From sequence record PZ445527.1: a DNA stretch of 64,000 bases; one strand, 5' to 3'. This document shows, piece after piece, positions 17,941 through 59,622 of the stretch. Position numbers and translations under genes: made by a program. The stretch is from a phage. The notes beneath the pieces were generated by a model. It did no database searches. It was not told the DNA's origin and saw only the letters and a list, made by a program, of their open reading frames with translations. Positions within the stretch are counted from its first letter, which is position 1. Every line of letters starts with the position of its first letter.

Positions 17941-18017
17941 TGGCGCGACTGATGGGATTTGAACCCACATTCCCTCCCGTGATAGGGGAGTACCATTACC
18001 AAGCCAGCCACGGTCGC
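17941..18017 (-). tRNA. tRNA-Asp-type with anticodon AUC (A34)
   Basis: Acceptor GCGACCG/CAGTCGC, CTCCC-CTATCAC-GGGAG, GTGGG-TTCAAAT-CCCAT, encoded CCA. The loop differs from the Asp CTGTCAC loop only at position 34. Confidence 0.7.
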
Positions 18018-36803: not shown

Positions 36804-37001
36804 TTAAGTTCTCAGCAGAATATCTATCGAGGTACTTAGTTCACTATAATTGAAGGGCCGATTTGGATTTGAGGTTACAATTTTCCACGCTAGGGTAGTC
36901 TTAGGACTTTCTTCCCCTTCCTTACGTGTAATCATATTAGCAGCGCTCAGTGAAGTACGATGTATTTTAGTTTTTCGGTGTAGATGTACAACGTCTCCCA
37001 T
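36804..37001 (-). CDS. hypothetical small protein (65 aa)
   Basis: ATG 37001 lies 2 nt after the phoH stop, with AAGGTG as RBS. The track's 88-aa version overlaps phoH. Confidence 0.45.
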   Translation of the reverse strand: MGDVVHLHRKTKIHRTSLSAANMITRKEGEESPKTTLAWKIVTSNPNRPFNYSELSTSIDILLRT

Positions 37002-37002
37002 A

Positions 37003-37755
37003 TTACACCTTCCCCATGTCTTTAAAAATATCGTAGAATGCTTTAGACTCAGCAGAACGAACGTTATCAATTAATTCGATCATTGAGAATGGAGCATTTT
37101 CATATTTCTCATAAACTTCCATAAGAAGTGCTAGACCTGAGTCACCTTTAATGTCTTTCTGAGCTATATCCCCGCAGATAATCAAACGGCAGTCTTGTCC
37201 TACACGAGTTAGGAGACAAACCATTGCCTCAACGGAAATATTCTGAGCTTCATCGACAATTACATAGGAGTTGTTGAAAGTTCTGCCACGAGCATGTTCT
37301 ATAGCCAAAAATTTAATTTTCTGACGTTCGACATATCCCTTATAGGCATGATCACCGATGGCCCATTTCATACCATCAGCTATTGGCTCCAACCAAGGCT
37401 CTAGCTTTTCGGCTAGATCACCAGGAAGCATACCAAGAGACTTACCTAGAGGTTCATTAGGACGTACGAGAATCACTTGCTCAATATCTGAGTGAATGTC
37501 TACGAGTTCCTGAGCTGCAAGAACGGACGGAATAAAGGTTTTACCAGTACCTGGCTCACCGATACCCACAGTCACTGTGTTGTTCTTGATCATATTGATA
37601 TATGATTTTTGCTCGCGGTTTTTACCTACTAGGGATTTAGCAACTGGGTTAGCGTAATCATTAGAAAAATCAGCCTGAATTACGTTATTCTCATATTTGT
37701 TGCCACGCTTTCTTGAACCATTGCGGTTCTCTCTTTTTTGACGTGCTTTTCCCAT
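37003..37755 (-). CDS. phoH: PhoH-like ATPase (250 aa)
   Basis: Walker A GEPGTGKTF and Walker B VIVDEAQN. ATG 37755 is 8 nt after TAGGAG, whereas the GTG at 37764 abuts the RBS. Confidence 0.85.
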   Translation of the reverse strand: MGKARQKRENRNGSRKRGNKYENNVIQADFSNDYANPVAKSLVGKNREQKSYINMIKNNTVTVGIGEPGTGKTFIPSVLAAQELVDIHSDIEQVILVRPNEPLGKSLGMLPGDLAEKLEPWLEPIADGMKWAIGDHAYKGYVERQKIKFLAIEHARGRTFNNSYVIVDEAQNISVEAMVCLLTRVGQDCRLIICGDIAQKDIKGDSGLALLMEVYEKYENAPFSMIELIDNVRSAESKAFYDIFKDMGKV

Positions 37756-37830
37756 AAATAACACTCCTATAGTGTACTTCGCTTCTAACAGAGGATCAAC
37801 AAAAGATCTTGTTTATCAACTTACAAATAT

Positions 37831-37859
37831 ATTATACCAGTATATACAGTAAAAAGCAA
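37831..37859 (-). promoter_or_regulatory. T5-type early promoter (TTGCTT-17-TATAAT) for phoH, leftward arm of the divergent region
   Basis: Hexamers read directly; about 70-nt 5' UTR. Confidence 0.7.
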
Positions 37860-37904
37860 CTACAATTTTAAATAAGCCTATGATATTGCATTTAAATAAA
37901 AAAT

Positions 37905-37933
37905 TTGCTTGCTTATAGAGGTAGAAATATGAT
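37905..37933 (+). promoter_or_regulatory. sigma70 promoter (TTGCTT-17-TATGAT), rightward
   Basis: Hexamers and spacer read directly in the AT-rich divergent region. Confidence 0.5.
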
Positions 37934-38030
37934 ACTAGATAATCATTTATTTATATGTAAAAATACTATGCTGTATAGCATCAATAAAAATTGATAAAAA
38001 TCAAAAGTCAAATAGTATTAGAAAAATGTA

Positions 38031-42856: not shown

Positions 42857-43285
42857 ATGTTCAATAATGTATTCTCTAAAGAAGCTAACCCAATTTTGGT
42901 TAACTTTTGGCGTACTCTTCCAGCCAACCTATACAATGAGGCTATTAATGCTCTGAAAATATGGTGTGAGAATAATGAAATCTCCTTTGCTTTTAAAGGT
43001 GAGATTGAAGAGGCTCCGTGTATTGGTTTAATTGTGCAGGTGGAGGATGGTCTTGAAGAGATTGTCGGCTGGAAAGAGTTAGATGAAATGGGCTTGGTTT
43101 TTGCATTAAACTATAAGCTGTTTATGCCTAATAAACACCGTATTGTTGTTAATTATAAAACCAGTGAATCTCCTGGTTTTCAAGTTAATGAACGGTATGG
43201 TTGGTCTTACTCACCAGAAGAGGTAAATGATGGTATCCAAAAACTTCGCCGTTTTGGTTATCAAATTCCGGGTTTAACTGCCTAA
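42857..43285 (+). CDS. hypothetical protein (142 aa), paralog A
   Basis: Shares PCIG...W.EL..MGL..ALN..LF.P...Y.P......L.R.G...PGL with the next ORF. Confidence 0.6.
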   Translation: MFNNVFSKEANPILVNFWRTLPANLYNEAINALKIWCENNEISFAFKGEIEEAPCIGLIVQVEDGLEEIVGWKELDEMGLVFALNYKLFMPNKHRIVVNYKTSESPGFQVNERYGWSYSPEEVNDGIQKLRRFGYQIPGLTA

Positions 43286-43294
43286 GGAGGCACA

Positions 43295-43681
43295 ATGGAA
43301 CAAGTATATTGGCGTCAGATTGATCCTAGTTTAGTGAAGCGTGCAGAGAAGCTGCTACAACGTTGGTTGGGGGTAAGACAAGCCTCCTTCACTTTTCCGG
43401 AGCAGCAAACGGATGATCCCTGTATTGGTGTTTTCCTATCAGGCTACGCTAGGGAATTGGATTGGAATGAGTTGTCTGCTATGGGTTTAATTGTTGCACT
43501 AAATTTCTTTTTGTTCCATCCACGTGGTTTGGCCATATGTCGTGTGCCTGATGACGGTTGTTCGCCCCATCTTTTACAGGTGAAAGATGATACTTGGGAG
43601 TACACTCCAGATATTCTCAAAGAAGCCAAAGAACAATTGAATCGTGTTGGAATCTATGTTCCAGGCCTGAATGATGAATGA
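43295..43681 (+). CDS. hypothetical protein (128 aa), paralog B
   Basis: RBS AAGGAGG. Collinear similarity to ORF 42857..43285. Confidence 0.6.
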   Translation: MEQVYWRQIDPSLVKRAEKLLQRWLGVRQASFTFPEQQTDDPCIGVFLSGYARELDWNELSAMGLIVALNFFLFHPRGLAICRVPDDGCSPHLLQVKDDTWEYTPDILKEAKEQLNRVGIYVPGLNDE

Positions 43682-43704
43682 TTTTTATTAGCTGAACTCT
43701 AATT

Positions 43705-43732
43705 GCCGAGTCATTTTGGCTCGGTTTTCTCT
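43705..43732 (+). terminator. rho-independent terminator
   Basis: GCCGAG-9 nt-CTCGGT stem followed by TTTCTC. Confidence 0.6.
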
Positions 43733-43772
43733 ATGCTCAAAGACACTGGTAGCAGCCCCTGGAAAAATCTAC

Positions 43773-43801
43773 TTGCATGATGCTCAAAATCTTGATATAA
43801 T
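43773..43801 (+). promoter_or_regulatory. T5-type early promoter (TTGCAT-17-TATAAT)
   Basis: Hexamers read directly. The leader has GAGAGA but no ORF for about 600 nt. Confidence 0.75.
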
Positions 43802-44395
43802 ATTTATATTGAATTGAGAGACATTAGTAAAAATTGATTTTGCTAATTTTTCTTAGTGAAGCTGACAAGGGATTTACGGCGAGAGGAATCGATGACCCGT
43901 AAATAGCTGCATAAGGTACGTTGCTAGAGCTTTACGAAAAAGTTTTTTCTTGTTTACAATCCGCGATACGGAACAGTTAGGCTGCCCCATTAAGGGTTGT
44001 TTTAACTATTACTAGTGTTTATATTGCATTAGTTAATCTTCAATTAAGTGATCTGTGTACCCTGAATTCGGAAAGGTAAATCCAAACCGTGCATATTTAG
44101 CTCGTTATATAGGCAGAGTTTTATATGGGGGTGCGAACGAAAAGAGCAGCGAATGGCGGCACGTACAGTAGTCACCTACCAATAGGATAGTGAGGACAAA
44201 TAGAATCGGCTTAGCGGCCAATGACCTAGGTTCTATTCTGTATATGAGCGAAGAGAGCACAGCACTGAGATATGATAACTTATTCATATTGTTTGATGAT
44301 AATTGATGTTTACGTAAATAGTAGTAATAGTTGTTCTATTCTTTCTGAATAGTCCTAAAGAAAAGATTTCGATTAACCAACACAGGAGTATTATT
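43802..44395 (+). other. about 600-nt non-coding, repeat- and palindrome-rich region (long 5' UTR, ncRNA or candidate origin)
   Basis: No credible ORF on either strand. Contains the hairpin ATTTACGG/CCGTAAAT, CGTAAATAG twice, the palindrome TTTACGTAAA and TTCTATTCT-type repeats. Confidence 0.5.
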
Positions 44396-47185
44396 GTGTT
44401 TTCTATCCTCCAAGGTCACGCCGGGTTTTCTCGTGATTTAGCAACAGGTATTTGGCGAGAAATCAAAGCGGAAGATTATACCTTTGCCAAGCGATTCTCG
44501 AAAGAGCATCCAGAAGGTAAACCAGCTTCTATGCCCTTCAAATTTGATGTAATAGAAGAGCACGACCCACAAAGCCTTGCAGAAATGTTACCACTTATGA
44601 GACGTTTAACGTCTGACCCTCATATCGTTGCGGTACGAGGTCGATGTCTTGCACCTAAAAATAATGTGCGACGTAAGAAAGATAACTTTAATGTATCTAA
44701 TCCTAGTAATATTATTGCTATGGACGTGGATGGTATCCTAGATACCGGTGGGTACGACAAATTTAACCTTGTTGGTATGGCCCGCCACATTATTAAGATG
44801 TTGAATAGTATTAGTGAGGATATGTTTCCTCTTGATGCAGGCTTTATAGCTCATGCATCGTCTTCGGCTGGGCTAAAACCAGGTATCCGAATGCACTTAA
44901 TGCTAGAATCTAACGTCAAGGTAACTCAGGGTCAGCTAAAGTTCTTATTTACATCTATCAATGATAGTAGTAAGCAAAAATTTGGTTTTGATATTGCCGA
45001 CCTAGCTTATTATTCATCTGTCCAGCTCCACTATTTTGCCAACCCCTTATTTAGCGATGGTATTGTTGATCCGTTTAAAGCGGAGAGTAAGCCACGTCTG
45101 GTGTATGTTAAAGGTTCGAAAGTAAATTTGCCCAATAATCTGGTTGACTATGAAACAACTAGAGGGGAGTTTAAAGAGGAATTCTACTCTTTACTCGATC
45201 AAATTAAAGGCAAAAAGATTGCTTCCGATAAAGTAGAAGAAACCATTAGCGAGTTAGAAGAGGCTGATGATGGAGTGTACTTGCGTATTATCCCCAAACT
45301 ATACCATAGAGCATTAGAGGATGGTGTTGATTTTGAATGGCTAGAACGTGAGATTAAACCAGCTTTATCTGAATATATTGCAACTAAAGATAACAGCCGT
45401 AATATTCAAGATTACTTTAATAACGGTCGTAAGCAGGCTCTCAAAGCGTTTGTTAATAATTCTAAACGTGAGATTCCATTAAATCTGAAAGGTGTTCCAC
45501 TTAAGAAATTAGAAGTGGATTCTCCACCAGAAGTTCCATACCTGAAGATTAACATTGTGCCCCCAAAAGGCCATATAACATTTGTTAAGGCAAGTCTTGG
45601 TACTGGTAAAACTACGGCAGTAACTAAATGGCTGGACGCAGGTGTTCTTCCGGGCAACTTTTTAGCAGTTACAAATACTAGAGCACTGGTATCTTCAAAT
45701 GCTAAGAAATTTAGTGCAGGACAATATGATAAGTCTGTAGATATGCTTAATTTTAAACGTGGAGCTATTGATCGTATGTCCACAACTATTCACTCTTTAC
45801 ATAAGTTCAAAAGTTTTATTGGGCAAATAGACACCATTTTTATTGATGAATGTGACGCTGTAATGAATGACCTATTATTCGCCCCAGTTGTTAAGCAACG
45901 TCGCGAGTGTATTCAAGTTCTACGTGACATCCTCATGACAGCTAAGACTGTAATCTTATCCGATGGTGATATTAGTGCGGAAACAATTGAAGCATATGGT
46001 TCTTTGATTGAGTTCGATAAACCAGTTGCATTCTATAATCATCACCGTAAGATGCTGTCAAAAGCTCATGCTTATGAGTTCCCTGATGAATCTAGTATTT
46101 GGGTTGCACTTCAGACCTCTCTAGAGATGGGTGAGAAATCTATTCTGGTATCTGATTGTGGGCCGGATGAACTGAATGAGAAGGGCATGGCGTTGCGTCG
46201 TAATACGGGTGCGTTAGTTAAGGAAATCCACTCAAACTCTACGTCTGATGTAGATATTCGACGTATTCTGGATTACACAACTAATGAGTTAATTGACCAA
46301 CAAATTGATTGCTTATTATGTAGTCCATCCGTAACGAGTGGTGTTGACTTCAACTATTTTGATAACGTATTCGTTATTACTAGAACCTCAAACCAAGCGC
46401 CAAACATGCGTTTTCAAGCAATCAGGCGCGACCGTGGTGCTCAGAATATCTATTATTTTATTGATAAATCCACTAGTGGGTTCTCTGCAGGTTCTGAACA
46501 ATATAATATTGATGAAGGTTGGCTGGAGTTAGCACAGCAATTATACGCACGTCGCAGAGAGCTGGAATCTAGGAACTATACTAGTACTTTACGTTATTAT
46601 TTGCTTGATCAGGGTGCAACTATTGATATTTTCAGCGAAAGCTGGGGAACTATTGAAGGTGCTGGTAAAGAGTACACAGAAGAGCGAATCAAAGCTATTC
46701 TGCACTCAACTCCTGATTATTGTGCTCCACGTCATGCGGATGCGTATGAAGCTAAACTACTTCTTGTCCGCTATTATCATCTTGAGTCTATTAAAGATGT
46801 AACAGTTGAGCATGTTGAACAATATATCAAAGATAAGCCGAATGATCGAGCTGCATTCTTCCATAAGATGCACGAGATGTTCTGGGAAGATATTAAGAAG
46901 TGTTCAAATGTGACCATTAAACCATTCATAGAAGCTCTGAAGGGTAAGAAGAAGGACTTCTTCCTTAAAACAGGTCAGAGTGCTAACCCAAAATATGCTA
47001 GAATGTATCTTGGTATGATGGGTATTGGTAAGGATATGAACACTGAAAATATTGTAGACTGGTACAGAACCTATTGTAAAATCGAGTGTATGCCAATTCC
47101 TTTCAAATTCATGACAGAGGAAGAGAAGGCTATGGCAGAAGAAGTAATGTCAGAGCTAGGTGCTAGAAATGACAGTGAAGAATAA
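44396..47185 (+). CDS. large P-loop helicase, putative replication-initiation / origin-binding protein (929 aa, GTG start)
   Basis: AGGAG plus 7 nt plus GTG. Walker A ASLGTGKTT and Walker B IFIDECDA, with an N-terminal domain of unknown fold. Confidence 0.7.
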   Translation: MFSILQGHAGFSRDLATGIWREIKAEDYTFAKRFSKEHPEGKPASMPFKFDVIEEHDPQSLAEMLPLMRRLTSDPHIVAVRGRCLAPKNNVRRKKDNFNVSNPSNIIAMDVDGILDTGGYDKFNLVGMARHIIKMLNSISEDMFPLDAGFIAHASSSAGLKPGIRMHLMLESNVKVTQGQLKFLFTSINDSSKQKFGFDIADLAYYSSVQLHYFANPLFSDGIVDPFKAESKPRLVYVKGSKVNLPNNLVDYETTRGEFKEEFYSLLDQIKGKKIASDKVEETISELEEADDGVYLRIIPKLYHRALEDGVDFEWLEREIKPALSEYIATKDNSRNIQDYFNNGRKQALKAFVNNSKREIPLNLKGVPLKKLEVDSPPEVPYLKINIVPPKGHITFVKASLGTGKTTAVTKWLDAGVLPGNFLAVTNTRALVSSNAKKFSAGQYDKSVDMLNFKRGAIDRMSTTIHSLHKFKSFIGQIDTIFIDECDAVMNDLLFAPVVKQRRECIQVLRDILMTAKTVILSDGDISAETIEAYGSLIEFDKPVAFYNHHRKMLSKAHAYEFPDESSIWVALQTSLEMGEKSILVSDCGPDELNEKGMALRRNTGALVKEIHSNSTSDVDIRRILDYTTNELIDQQIDCLLCSPSVTSGVDFNYFDNVFVITRTSNQAPNMRFQAIRRDRGAQNIYYFIDKSTSGFSAGSEQYNIDEGWLELAQQLYARRRELESRNYTSTLRYYLLDQGATIDIFSESWGTIEGAGKEYTEERIKAILHSTPDYCAPRHADAYEAKLLLVRYYHLESIKDVTVEHVEQYIKDKPNDRAAFFHKMHEMFWEDIKKCSNVTIKPFIEALKGKKKDFFLKTGQSANPKYARMYLGMMGIGKDMNTENIVDWYRTYCKIECMPIPFKFMTEEEKAMAEEVMSELGARNDSEE

Positions 47186-59132: not shown

Positions 59133-59622
59133 TTTCAAATTGCCCGTCTATGCGTTACGGGCATTTGTATCAATTGAGCAAGAAGGTGATTATTCCGTAA
59201 TTACAACAAGATATAATAAATATGTCCTAGATAACAGGAAGTTGCCTGGCACTTTTTCTCAACGTAGACTTATTCTATTTGAGAAACGGAAAGAATTACC
59301 ATACAAGCTCTATCCTATTAGAGGTAGAATATCAATGTTGTCTCAATTAGTTGGGTCAAAGCGTAACCAATTTATAGATTCTGATGGAAATCTTATTAAT
59401 TGGAAGAAAACTACGTTCTACGATGTTGTCACCTCTAAAGTTTTGCATTCAGCTAGAATTTATAATGGAAAATACCAATGCTATGTGGCTAAAGTCCCTT
59501 ATCCATTTGTATTATCCTATGTTCCAGCTTATATAAGCTATATTCTGGTAAATAATAGCCCTGTTATTTATCAAGTCCATCAAGAGGAGCCTGAAATTCC
59601 TAGACTTAGAATAAAATTATGA
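59125..59622 (+). CDS. hypothetical protein (165 aa, GTG start)
   Basis: GTG overlapping the polymerase stop, with AAGGA RBS. ATGA overlap to the helicase gene. Confidence 0.5.
   Translation: MLNFKLPVYALRAFVSIEQEGDYSVITTRYNKYVLDNRKLPGTFSQRRLILFEKRKELPYKLYPIRGRISMLSQLVGSKRNQFIDSDGNLINWKKTTFYDVVTSKVLHSARIYNGKYQCYVAKVPYPFVLSYVPAYISYILVNNSPVIYQVHQEEPEIPRLRIKL

Follow-up and report, generated by a model that had tools for sequence, protein, structure and literature searches.

The ORF-free interval in front of the gene for the 929-aa helicase D2 is, judging from its comparison with related phages, very probably the template of a functional structured RNA. The interval lies in a window (the whole stretch of DNA that was analysed, 64,000 nucleotides) that belongs to a Tequintavirus. 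Positions 43682-44395 are 98.9% identical to Escherichia phage DT571/2, and they match 524 phage records, most of which are Tequintavirus by organism name. The left neighbour is a DUF7415 gene (43295-43681) and the right neighbour is the D2 gene itself. In the related GenBank records that we inspected, the interval carries nothing beyond a terminator, a 'putative promoter' or, here and there, short 'hypothetical proteins', and the leader RNA is annotated in none of them. Our search of the searchable literature likewise returned no description of it. The leader RNA is a new RNA family of an already known general kind, the structured leader or primer-like transcript of an initiator gene; its size, its modular core and its invariant loops are unusual.

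The transcript and its parts

The leader transcript starts afresh because the upstream operon stops at an intrinsic terminator (a hairpin followed by a T-run; Table 1), which is kept in the Tequintavirus and cross-genus alignments and is annotated as a terminator in phage HdH2. The first-pass annotation had recognised a consensus early promoter with the standard leader downstream of this point, and our analysis agrees. The promoter has TTGCAT at 43773-43778, a 17-nt spacer, TG at 43793-43794 and TATAAT at 43796-43801, and the standard leader (..TTGAGAG) follows at 43814. Units of the form TATAAT-N6-18-TGAGAG occur nine times in the window against 0.42 expected, the promoter of the D2 leader being one of the nine. 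By analogy with other T5 early promoters, the RNA is expected to start near 43808. Host RNA polymerase should start the leader RNA at this promoter and read on into the D2 ORF, and a scan of the locus found no intrinsic terminator between the RNA and D2. The RNA has a length of about 590 nt here and of about 490 nt in T5, where a 97-nt insert is absent.

The RNA begins with a terminal hairpin, P1, at whose position Sugarlandvirus and the phages DU_PP_V and My1 have different sequences with the same pairing. The optional 97-nt insert comes next. It occurs with both core types, in 51 phage records and at one place in each, and in single-sequence folds it folds independently of the rest, as expected of an expansion segment. 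The region of the second hairpin, P2, is 100% identical in all the Tequintaviruses aligned and nearly so in three other lineages. Its stem has compensating sequences in Sugarlandvirus (CCGAGCAU/AUGCUUGG, read by eye), and the 18-nt island of the P2 motif is found in exactly one copy in each of 31 T5-like IMG/VR contigs. The closing duplex, about 30 bp long and interrupted, spans a core of about 250 nt. Independent folds of T5, A2, B, DU_PP_V and My1 all have long closing stems; the fold of Sugarlandvirus is arranged differently. The 3' hairpin has counterparts in Sugarlandvirus (CUAUC/GAUAG) and in DU_PP_V (CUUUCC/GGAAAG) and stands about 45 nt upstream of the ribosome-binding site, from which it is separated by a variable linker.

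Table 1. Features of the D2 leader and its surroundings (positions in the window).
Feature	Position	Strand	Remarks
Intrinsic terminator (hairpin and T-run)	43705..43732 (hairpin 43705-43725)	+	Ends upstream Sir2/DUF7415 operon
Early sigma-70 promoter, TTGCAT-17 nt-TGn-TATAAT	43773..43801	+	'Putative promoter' in T5 AY692264
P1, 5'-terminal hairpin including standard-leader GAGAGA	43815..43855	+	In every single-sequence fold
Optional 97-nt insert, own stem-loop domain	43849..43945	+	Direct repeat TTTTTCTT at both ends
P2 hairpin, ACAATCC/GGGTTGT	43956..44000	+	Bears invariant 21-nt loop ACGGAACAGTTAGGCTGCCCC (43968-43988)
Closing duplex, 5' strand (long, interrupted)	44003..44046	+	Inverted repeats I1, I2; folds
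Core domain, form A (window, T5) or B (many relatives)	44047..44299	+	Conserved islands
Core helix	44048-44058/44257-44265	+	97.8% paired; 6/9 pairs changed on both sides
Stem ATAGAATC/GGTTCTAT with invariant hairpin GGCTTAGCGGCC (44208-44219) and 9-nt 3' bulge	44200..44236	+	
Core hairpin	44270-44289	+	Within core domain
Closing duplex, 3' strand	44300..44333	+	Includes TTTACGTAAA and second CGTAAATAG
3' hairpin, CTATTC-TTTCTG-GAATAG	44336..44352	+	Inside invariant 45-nt block
Shine-Dalgarno AGGAG (44384-44388) and GTG start of D2 (44396)	44384..44398	+	
D2 gene, 929-aa SF2 helicase, Rep-like, annotated 'replication origin binding protein'	44396..47185	+	Domain and structure matches

Comparative evidence for a folded RNA

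Consensus folding with RNAalifold, of seven and of 21 sequences, predicted long-range helices in which compensatory changes are numerous and some G-U pairs are invariant. For eight representatives, the consensus folding energy was -93.5 kcal/mol, compared with -43.9 +/- 5.3 kcal/mol in column-shuffled alignments (z = -9.3), and there were 63 pairs with compensatory double changes, compared with 28 +/- 6 in the shuffles (maximum 44). We also counted pairs over 21 sequences and 113 pairs, the structure under test being derived from the same alignment. In this count 91% of the cells were paired (38-48% with slid partners), 51 pairs were changed on both sides (20-23 with slid partners), and the covariation score was 0.33 (0.06-0.10 with slid partners); none of 500 shuffles matched these values. 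The compensatory changes span Tequintavirus, Sugarlandvirus and two Pectobacterium phages. On the plus strand the region has a more stable fold than shuffled sequences (z = -2.9, 0 of 100 shuffles), whereas on the minus strand it has not (z = -1.0, 14 of 100). We place the RNA on the plus strand because the invariant G-U pairs found there would be C-A mismatches on the other.

The same 21-sequence count gives the support for individual helices. In the closing duplex, 87-96.5% of the cells are paired and 11 of the 23 pairs are changed on both sides. The core helix occurs in four versions (CUGUG/CACAG, CUGCG/CGCAG, CUACA/UGUAG and CUAGAA/UUCUAG). The stem 44200-44207/44229-44236 is 98% paired, with seven of its eight pairs changed on both sides, and has eight different sequences around the invariant GCUUAGCGGC. 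Applied to type B, the single-sequence fold of T5 was not superior to slid controls, and for this reason we claim only the helices that the alignment supports. Those established by the alignment are 44003-44046/44300-44333, 44048-44058/44257-44265 and 44200-44207/44229-44236 with its tip hairpin at 44208-44219, and only these. The A and B cores may differ in much of their folding, a subset of helices alone being common to both.

The first-pass annotation had described this region as rich in repeats and palindromes. Every feature that it listed is present where it was placed: the hairpin ATTTACGG-17-CCGTAAAT at 43872-43904, the 9-mer CGTAAATAG at 43898 and 44313, the palindrome TTTACGTAAA at 44309-44318, GTTCTATTCT at 44230 and 44333, and the inverted repeat CTATTC-6-GAATAG at 44336-44352. 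The richness itself did not hold, since in this sequence taken alone exact repeats and palindromes do not exceed the number expected from shuffling. There are four exact direct 9-mer pairs, compared with 1.4 +/- 1.6 after dinucleotide shuffling (9% of the shuffled sequences have at least four), and seven inverted 8-mers, compared with 4.8 +/- 2.9 (26% have at least seven). The repeats are also poorly kept among relatives. The ATTTACGG hairpin and the first CGTAAATAG sit inside the 97-nt insert that T5 itself does without, the TTTACGTAAA palindrome is altered in the A2 and B variants, and over T5, A2 and B-type phages taken together this palindrome, the ATTTACGG hairpin and the pair of CGTAAATAG copies are missing or changed. 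The motifs GAATAG/CTATTC, TAAATAG, TTTACGTAAA and GTTCTATTCT are strands of RNA helices, and the two longest inverted repeats returned by an independent repeat search (44004-44021/44315-44332 and 44029-44046/44300-44317) are the closing duplex. The real signal is comparative: long-range inverted repeats and other helices that covary in relatives.

Known RNA families gave no counterpart. When this region of the window and phage My1 were searched permissively with cmscan against the Rfam 15 covariance models, the only matches had E = 1.8-9.8, far below the gathering scores, and ARAGORN found no tRNA in the region. Several resemblances were followed up and rejected. The likeness to RNase P lies in ATAGAATCGGCTTAGCGGCCA here and GAACAGTCCGGCTGC in Sugarlandvirus, whose counterparts in E. 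coli M1 we take to be ACAGAACCCGGCUUAUCGGUCA and GGAAAGUCCGGGCUCC, respectively; no RNase P model matched even at E = 10, and type B does not retain the ACAGAA-like part. AAUAGUCC resembles the S element of group I introns, again with no Rfam match. The 'Rad' anti-retron factor of T5 is a protein in the tRNA region, at a different locus.

Conservation, core exchange and linkage to D2

An alignment of ten Tequintaviruses revealed a common layout: the terminator, an invariant promoter with its leader, the optional insert, an invariant block of about 65 nt, a centre of about 300 nt, an invariant block of about 45 nt, and the ribosome-binding site with the GTG codon. The A and B forms of the centre are of equal length and have the short islands GATCT, GGCTTAGCGGCC and CAGC in common. 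Between T5 and a B-type phage, identity is 99-100% over the first ~100 nt of the transcript (P1/P2), 33-60% over the centre and about 80-95% over D2; within type A the core is 95-99% identical. By these identities the centre behaves as a module exchanged between phages. Between T5 and an A2-type phage, the leader is 95-99% identical whereas the flanking genes are 50-89% identical, which argues that the nucleotide sequence itself is under strong selection.

In each genus of Demerecviridae sampled, the D2 homologue follows a gap of 370-1100 nt that holds no ORF, and a promoter stands at the head of most such gaps. The gap is 598 nt long in Sugarlandvirus, about 590 nt in the Pectobacterium phages My1 and DU_PP_V, 711 nt in Providencia phage PSTCR5, about 820 nt in Proteus phage Stubb and 580-1100 nt in Vibrio phages; in one metagenomic relative (L051) the gap is shorter and AT-rich, and no promoter could be recognised in it. 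The enterobacterial genera have several islands in common: TTGAGAGA, which stands at the start, GATACGGAACAGTTNGGCTGCCCCAT, GAGAAGTG and GCTTAGCGGC, together with a hairpin, GGRAGTTGCCACCCC. R1, a covariance model of 42 nt built on the GCUUAGCGGC hairpin, has a single plus-strand match in each D2 leader apart from those of Vibrio-type phages, in which it found nothing. In the Providencia (E = 0.09-0.57) and Proteus (E = 3.6) phages its matches are marginal, each being the sole match in the locus. The Vibrio-type leaders share only 44-58% identity with one another, which is too little for an analysis of covariation. A sequence-profile search (nhmmer) gave nothing significant beyond the four closest lineages, and a scan of metagenomes with a 14-base motif gave chance matches among the matches listed.

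The adjoining 929-aa protein had been called initiator-like from its sequence, and the database matches bear this out. Its Pfam match, Herpes_ori_bp, covers residues 389-533 only; it also matches structures of herpes origin-binding proteins, with the resemblance to UL9 confined to the helicase domain, and its match to CyRepA1, a plasmid Rep family, has E = 5e-35 and falls short of the curated cut-off. Residues 1-385 match nothing in Pfam, NCBIfam or the PDB, and a homologue search with the N-terminal domain returned two fragments only. The protein is the D2 helicase of T5, which is biochemically a bipolar helicase and has been proposed to be a replication initiator (PMC3632103). Linkage between the core type and the first two thirds of D2 is complete in 28 genomes, in which the upstream gene and the 3' third of D2 are mosaic.

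Possible roles of the leader RNA

The reading that we favour, and to which we give an even chance, is that the leader acts in cis on the D2 mRNA, in its control or its processing. We favour it because those 28 genomes show joint inheritance of the RNA with the first two thirds of D2, because phage early transcripts have their stability and their RNase III processing controlled by features of this kind, a 5'-terminal hairpin and a duplex of about 30 bp, and because initiator (Rep) genes commonly carry structured regulatory leaders, a well-known theme. The leader would act on the mRNA of a Rep-like initiator helicase as follows. The 5' hairpin would stabilise the transcript, and the long duplex would be a likely processing site for a double-strand RNase (RNase III); in it, near-continuous pairing extends over at least about two turns, the extent taken to mark an RNase III leader. 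Cutting the closing duplex would free the core and leave a D2 mRNA with a short leader. The invariant loops may bind a phage protein, for which D2 itself is the obvious candidate, and this binding would set the amount of initiator.

Two sets of known systems resemble such a leader. The leaders of R1 CopT, of the IncB/ColIb-P9 pseudoknot and of T4 genes 32 and 43 are also structures at the 5' end of a replication gene, and they set the dose of the protein. They measure from tens to about 150 nt and involve the ribosome-binding site directly, whereas the D2 leader is 0.5 kb long, modular and without conserved pairing to that site. The RNase III stalks of rRNA precursors, T7 early mRNAs and the lambda N leader share with it a long duplex, with strands about 300 nt apart, that encloses a folded domain in a phage early transcript made by the host polymerase; the domain enclosed in the D2 leader is, however, neither rRNA nor coding, and its cleavage is only predicted.

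The first-pass annotation had offered as its alternative a long structured 5' UTR that controls translation of the helicase. The long structured 5' UTR is supported, and control of helicase translation is at most a candidate role: by thermodynamic prediction, no RNA pairing with the ribosome-binding site or the start codon is conserved, and the predicted partners of that site differ in all nine lineages. We therefore rejected occlusion of the ribosome-binding site. Nor was there an expression platform of the riboswitch or translational-operator kind, with neither a conserved alternative pairing of the ribosome-binding site nor an intrinsic terminator before D2. Proteus phage Stubb has a consensus promoter (TTGACA-18-TATAAT) between the structured region and D2, which suggests that the RNA may work independently of D2 translation. 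The unconserved partner, the variable linker and Stubb's own D2 promoter all oppose a simple translational switch. A multi-domain RNA of 0.5 kb with invariant loops is also much larger than ordinary translational operators, and this counts against the cis reading. The same unconserved partner, variable linker and Stubb promoter keep two rivals alive, a primer-like RNA and a released RNA that acts in trans.

In the first of these, the early transcript would be part of an RNA-dependent origin. As in ColE1 RNA II or the cyanobacterial plasmid pSYSA, it would form a lasting hybrid, or go to D2, and so prime or open the first rounds of T5 replication at or just upstream of the D2 start. We regard this as unlikely, with several points in its favour. 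The element lies directly upstream of a Rep-like helicase at about 49% of the T5 genome (D2 starts at 59,615 of 121,752 bp), and both the distance of 490-590 nt from the start site to D2 and the folded nature of the transcript resemble RNA II. More generally, the leader shares with ColE1 RNA II and the ssr7036-asRNA1 locus of pSYSA a folded transcript of about 0.5 kb, made from its own promoter, with a 3' end that would lie where replication functions act, and with pSYSA a transcribed locus directly upstream of a Rep helicase (CyRepA1) related to D2. It differs from both in that the Rep mRNA is the continuation of its transcript and in having no sequence or Rfam similarity to them. T4 oriF and oriG and the T7 primary origin are transcript-primed phage origins that also have a promoter upstream of a replication-related gene and a transcript that doubles as mRNA, but they need an unwinding element and not a conserved RNA fold. 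The Rep of pSYSA needs the transcribed locus upstream of its gene, and the authors of that study propose priming in the spacer before rep (PMC9978351). The origin of T5 is unmapped at the sequence level (PMC3632103), and swappable cores co-inherited with the N-terminal two thirds of D2 would fit pairs of origin and initiator specificity.

Other observations speak against a priming role. The sign of the GC skew changes at about 37-38 kb of the window, some 6 kb upstream, a change that coincides with the switch of transcription direction and is confounded by it. The strand bias of retron editing suggests that T5 replicates mainly unidirectionally from one genome end (PMC10055335). A consensus promoter scan, the one search made for it, showed neither a conserved antisense promoter nor a counter-transcript; the single weak minus-strand promoter-like site (44419-44390) relies on a base that differs in T5. 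Finally, the type A core stays 92% identical while the 5' end of D2 falls to 80%, so that there is no strict co-variation of the core with D2.

It is also improbable, to our minds, that the RNA is a stable noncoding RNA acting in trans, cut out at the closing duplex as rRNA is from its precursor and serving as a ribonucleoprotein scaffold, a ribozyme or an anti-defence decoy, with D2 merely the next gene. Few structured RNAs of bacteria and phages are as large as 0.5 kb, and those that are understood are ribozymes or ribonucleoprotein scaffolds; the size and complexity of the leader match these rare large RNAs. The invariant loops, a closing duplex that resembles a processing stalk, the exchange of the core between phages as a module, the separate D2 promoter in Stubb and the failure to find a conserved interaction with the translation start all point the same way. 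However, in all the lineages examined the RNA has its place directly before D2, a terminator of the RNA's own was not found, and neither a catalytic nor any other known RNA family was matched in Rfam 15. GOLLD and ROOL are comparable in being conserved, phage-borne, multi-helix RNAs of several hundred nt to which no function has been assigned. These usually lie near tRNA genes, whereas the D2 leader does not match their Rfam models and is fixed upstream of the D2 helicase gene.

Decidedly unlikely, in our view, is the proposal that the leader is the T5 origin in RNA form. D2 would then recognise the invariant loops and open or prime the adjacent DNA, and the core types would be determinants of origin and initiator specificity between co-infecting T5-like phages.

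The origin proposed by the first-pass annotation was of the classical double-stranded kind, in which iterons bound by D2 would accompany an AT-rich unwinding element. The region does adjoin an initiator-type helicase gene, its 3' third is AT-rich, and it holds one 9-mer (CGTTCGCAC, 44131-44139, minus strand) that resembles what we take to be the core of herpes UL9 box I. Yet a repeat search found no regularly spaced array of at least three direct repeats of about 17-22 bp, only two-copy families of 9-18 nt with irregular spacing, and the repeats named as iteron-like occur at chance-level counts and are unconserved or in the optional insert. The UL9-like 9-mer is single-copy and restricted to type A cores, D2 is UL9-like only in its helicase domain, and the compensatory pairs and strand-specific G-U pairs point to RNA rather than to protein-DNA contacts. 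We consider such an origin very unlikely and the least supported reading of an origin in this interval. It is scarcely credible that the region encodes one or more small proteins, as the short 'hypothetical proteins' of some GenBank records would have it: the only ORF of at least 60 aa, as the first-pass annotation had already judged in finding no credible ORF over some 600 nt, is that on the minus strand at 44105-44287 (38-aa plus-strand ORFs are other candidates), the ORFs differ in strand, position and length between lineages, variable sites have no 3-nt periodicity (per codon position, 17/18/14 for type A and 15/15/15 for type B), the lengths of the indels are not divisible by three, and six-frame proteomics of the related phage phiR2-01 added only two genes, g18.1 and g54.1 (PMC8624392).

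A structured RNA in this interval corrects the spurious annotations of small ORFs there. T5 is a classic model phage whose origin has never been pinned to a sequence. The leader RNA is a concrete and mutable target for learning how T5 starts or doses its replication.

Core forms of the leader and divergence of D2

The centre of the structured leader that precedes D2 (the 929-aa Rep-like SF2 helicase gene) is a core of about 250 nt with two forms, A in the window and in T5 and B in many relatives. Cores of the same form are 92–100% identical, and identity between the forms is 33–60% (window 44047-44299 against L028:2600-2900, the locus of a B-form phage). The motifs GAGAAGTG and GGAAGTTGCCACCCC are common to the B form and other genera and are absent from T5 and the A form. 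When phages with A-type leaders are compared with B-type ones (L018:4000-4200 against L028), D2 differs most at codons ~335–400, directly before the helicase domain; there, nucleotide identity in 100-nt windows is 61–62%, versus 80–99% elsewhere.

Every A-type leader also carries CGTTCGCAC, the core sequence of box I, the recognition site of herpes UL9. Because this 9-mer is confined to A-type leaders, being found in no B-type leader and no other genus, the match is probably a coincidence of sequence.

Length variation in the leader

The optional insert (see table) forms a separate stem-loop of its own in the fold of the window leader. It is carried by 51 of ~530 related records, at a single site every time, and is seen with leaders of both types. 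This segment could be an RNA expansion segment; alternatively, it may have been deleted between its flanking repeats in the phages that are without it. Length also varies among Vibrio-type phages, where one leader (L057) is ~93 nt longer than another (L058), a difference reminiscent of the insert in the window. A distant Vibrio-type metagenomic phage (L062, ~2233-2420) has a tandem duplication of ~100 nt in its D2 leader, with CGTCGTCTAATGTTAAATCATAATAGAAGATCC... present twice.

Genomic surroundings of the leader

Genes of similar size to the DUF7415 pair of the window occupy the same place in Sugarlandvirus and My1. One such gene in phage Spivey is labelled 'RNA-binding protein', and the DUF7415 protein is without a relative of solved structure. 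Further away, the GC skew flips from negative to positive at window ~37000-38000, where leftward genes (phoH) give way to rightward ones (nrdD). The 12 tRNA genes at 15.6-22 kb include a tRNA-Asp whose anticodon has, unusually, an A as its wobble base.

Features of the window
Feature	Position	Strand	Remark
tRNA-Asp	17941-18017	-	anticodon ATC; ARAGORN
Tandem paralogous genes	42857-43285; 43295-43681		two DUF7415 repeats each; directly upstream of leader
Optional insert	43849-43945		97 nt; flanked by 8-nt direct repeat TTTTTCTT
CGTTCGCAC	44131-44139	-	one exact copy
TATAAT-N6-18-TGAGAG	2668, 13003, 23279, 25959	-
TATAAT-N6-18-TGAGAG	40653, 43796, 48004, 50203, 60978	+

Promoters of the leader and of D2

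The standard early promoter and leader unit, TATAAT-N6-18-TGAGAG, occurs nine times in the window, against 0.42 copies expected. The copy at 43796, the one of the nine viewed in detail, has no ORF close behind it. In some relatives (L009, L026, L033, L049 and Salmonella phage 3sent1, L010:1016-1468), an HNH endonuclease gene lies between the terminator and the leader; a different TATAAT promoter then replaces the normal one, and from GAGAGACATTAG onward the leader is the same as usual. In Proteus phage Stubb, a consensus TTGACA-18-TATAAT promoter (L044:2935-2964) follows the structured region and precedes the start codon of D2. Given this position, D2 may be transcribed independently of the structured RNA in Stubb's genus.
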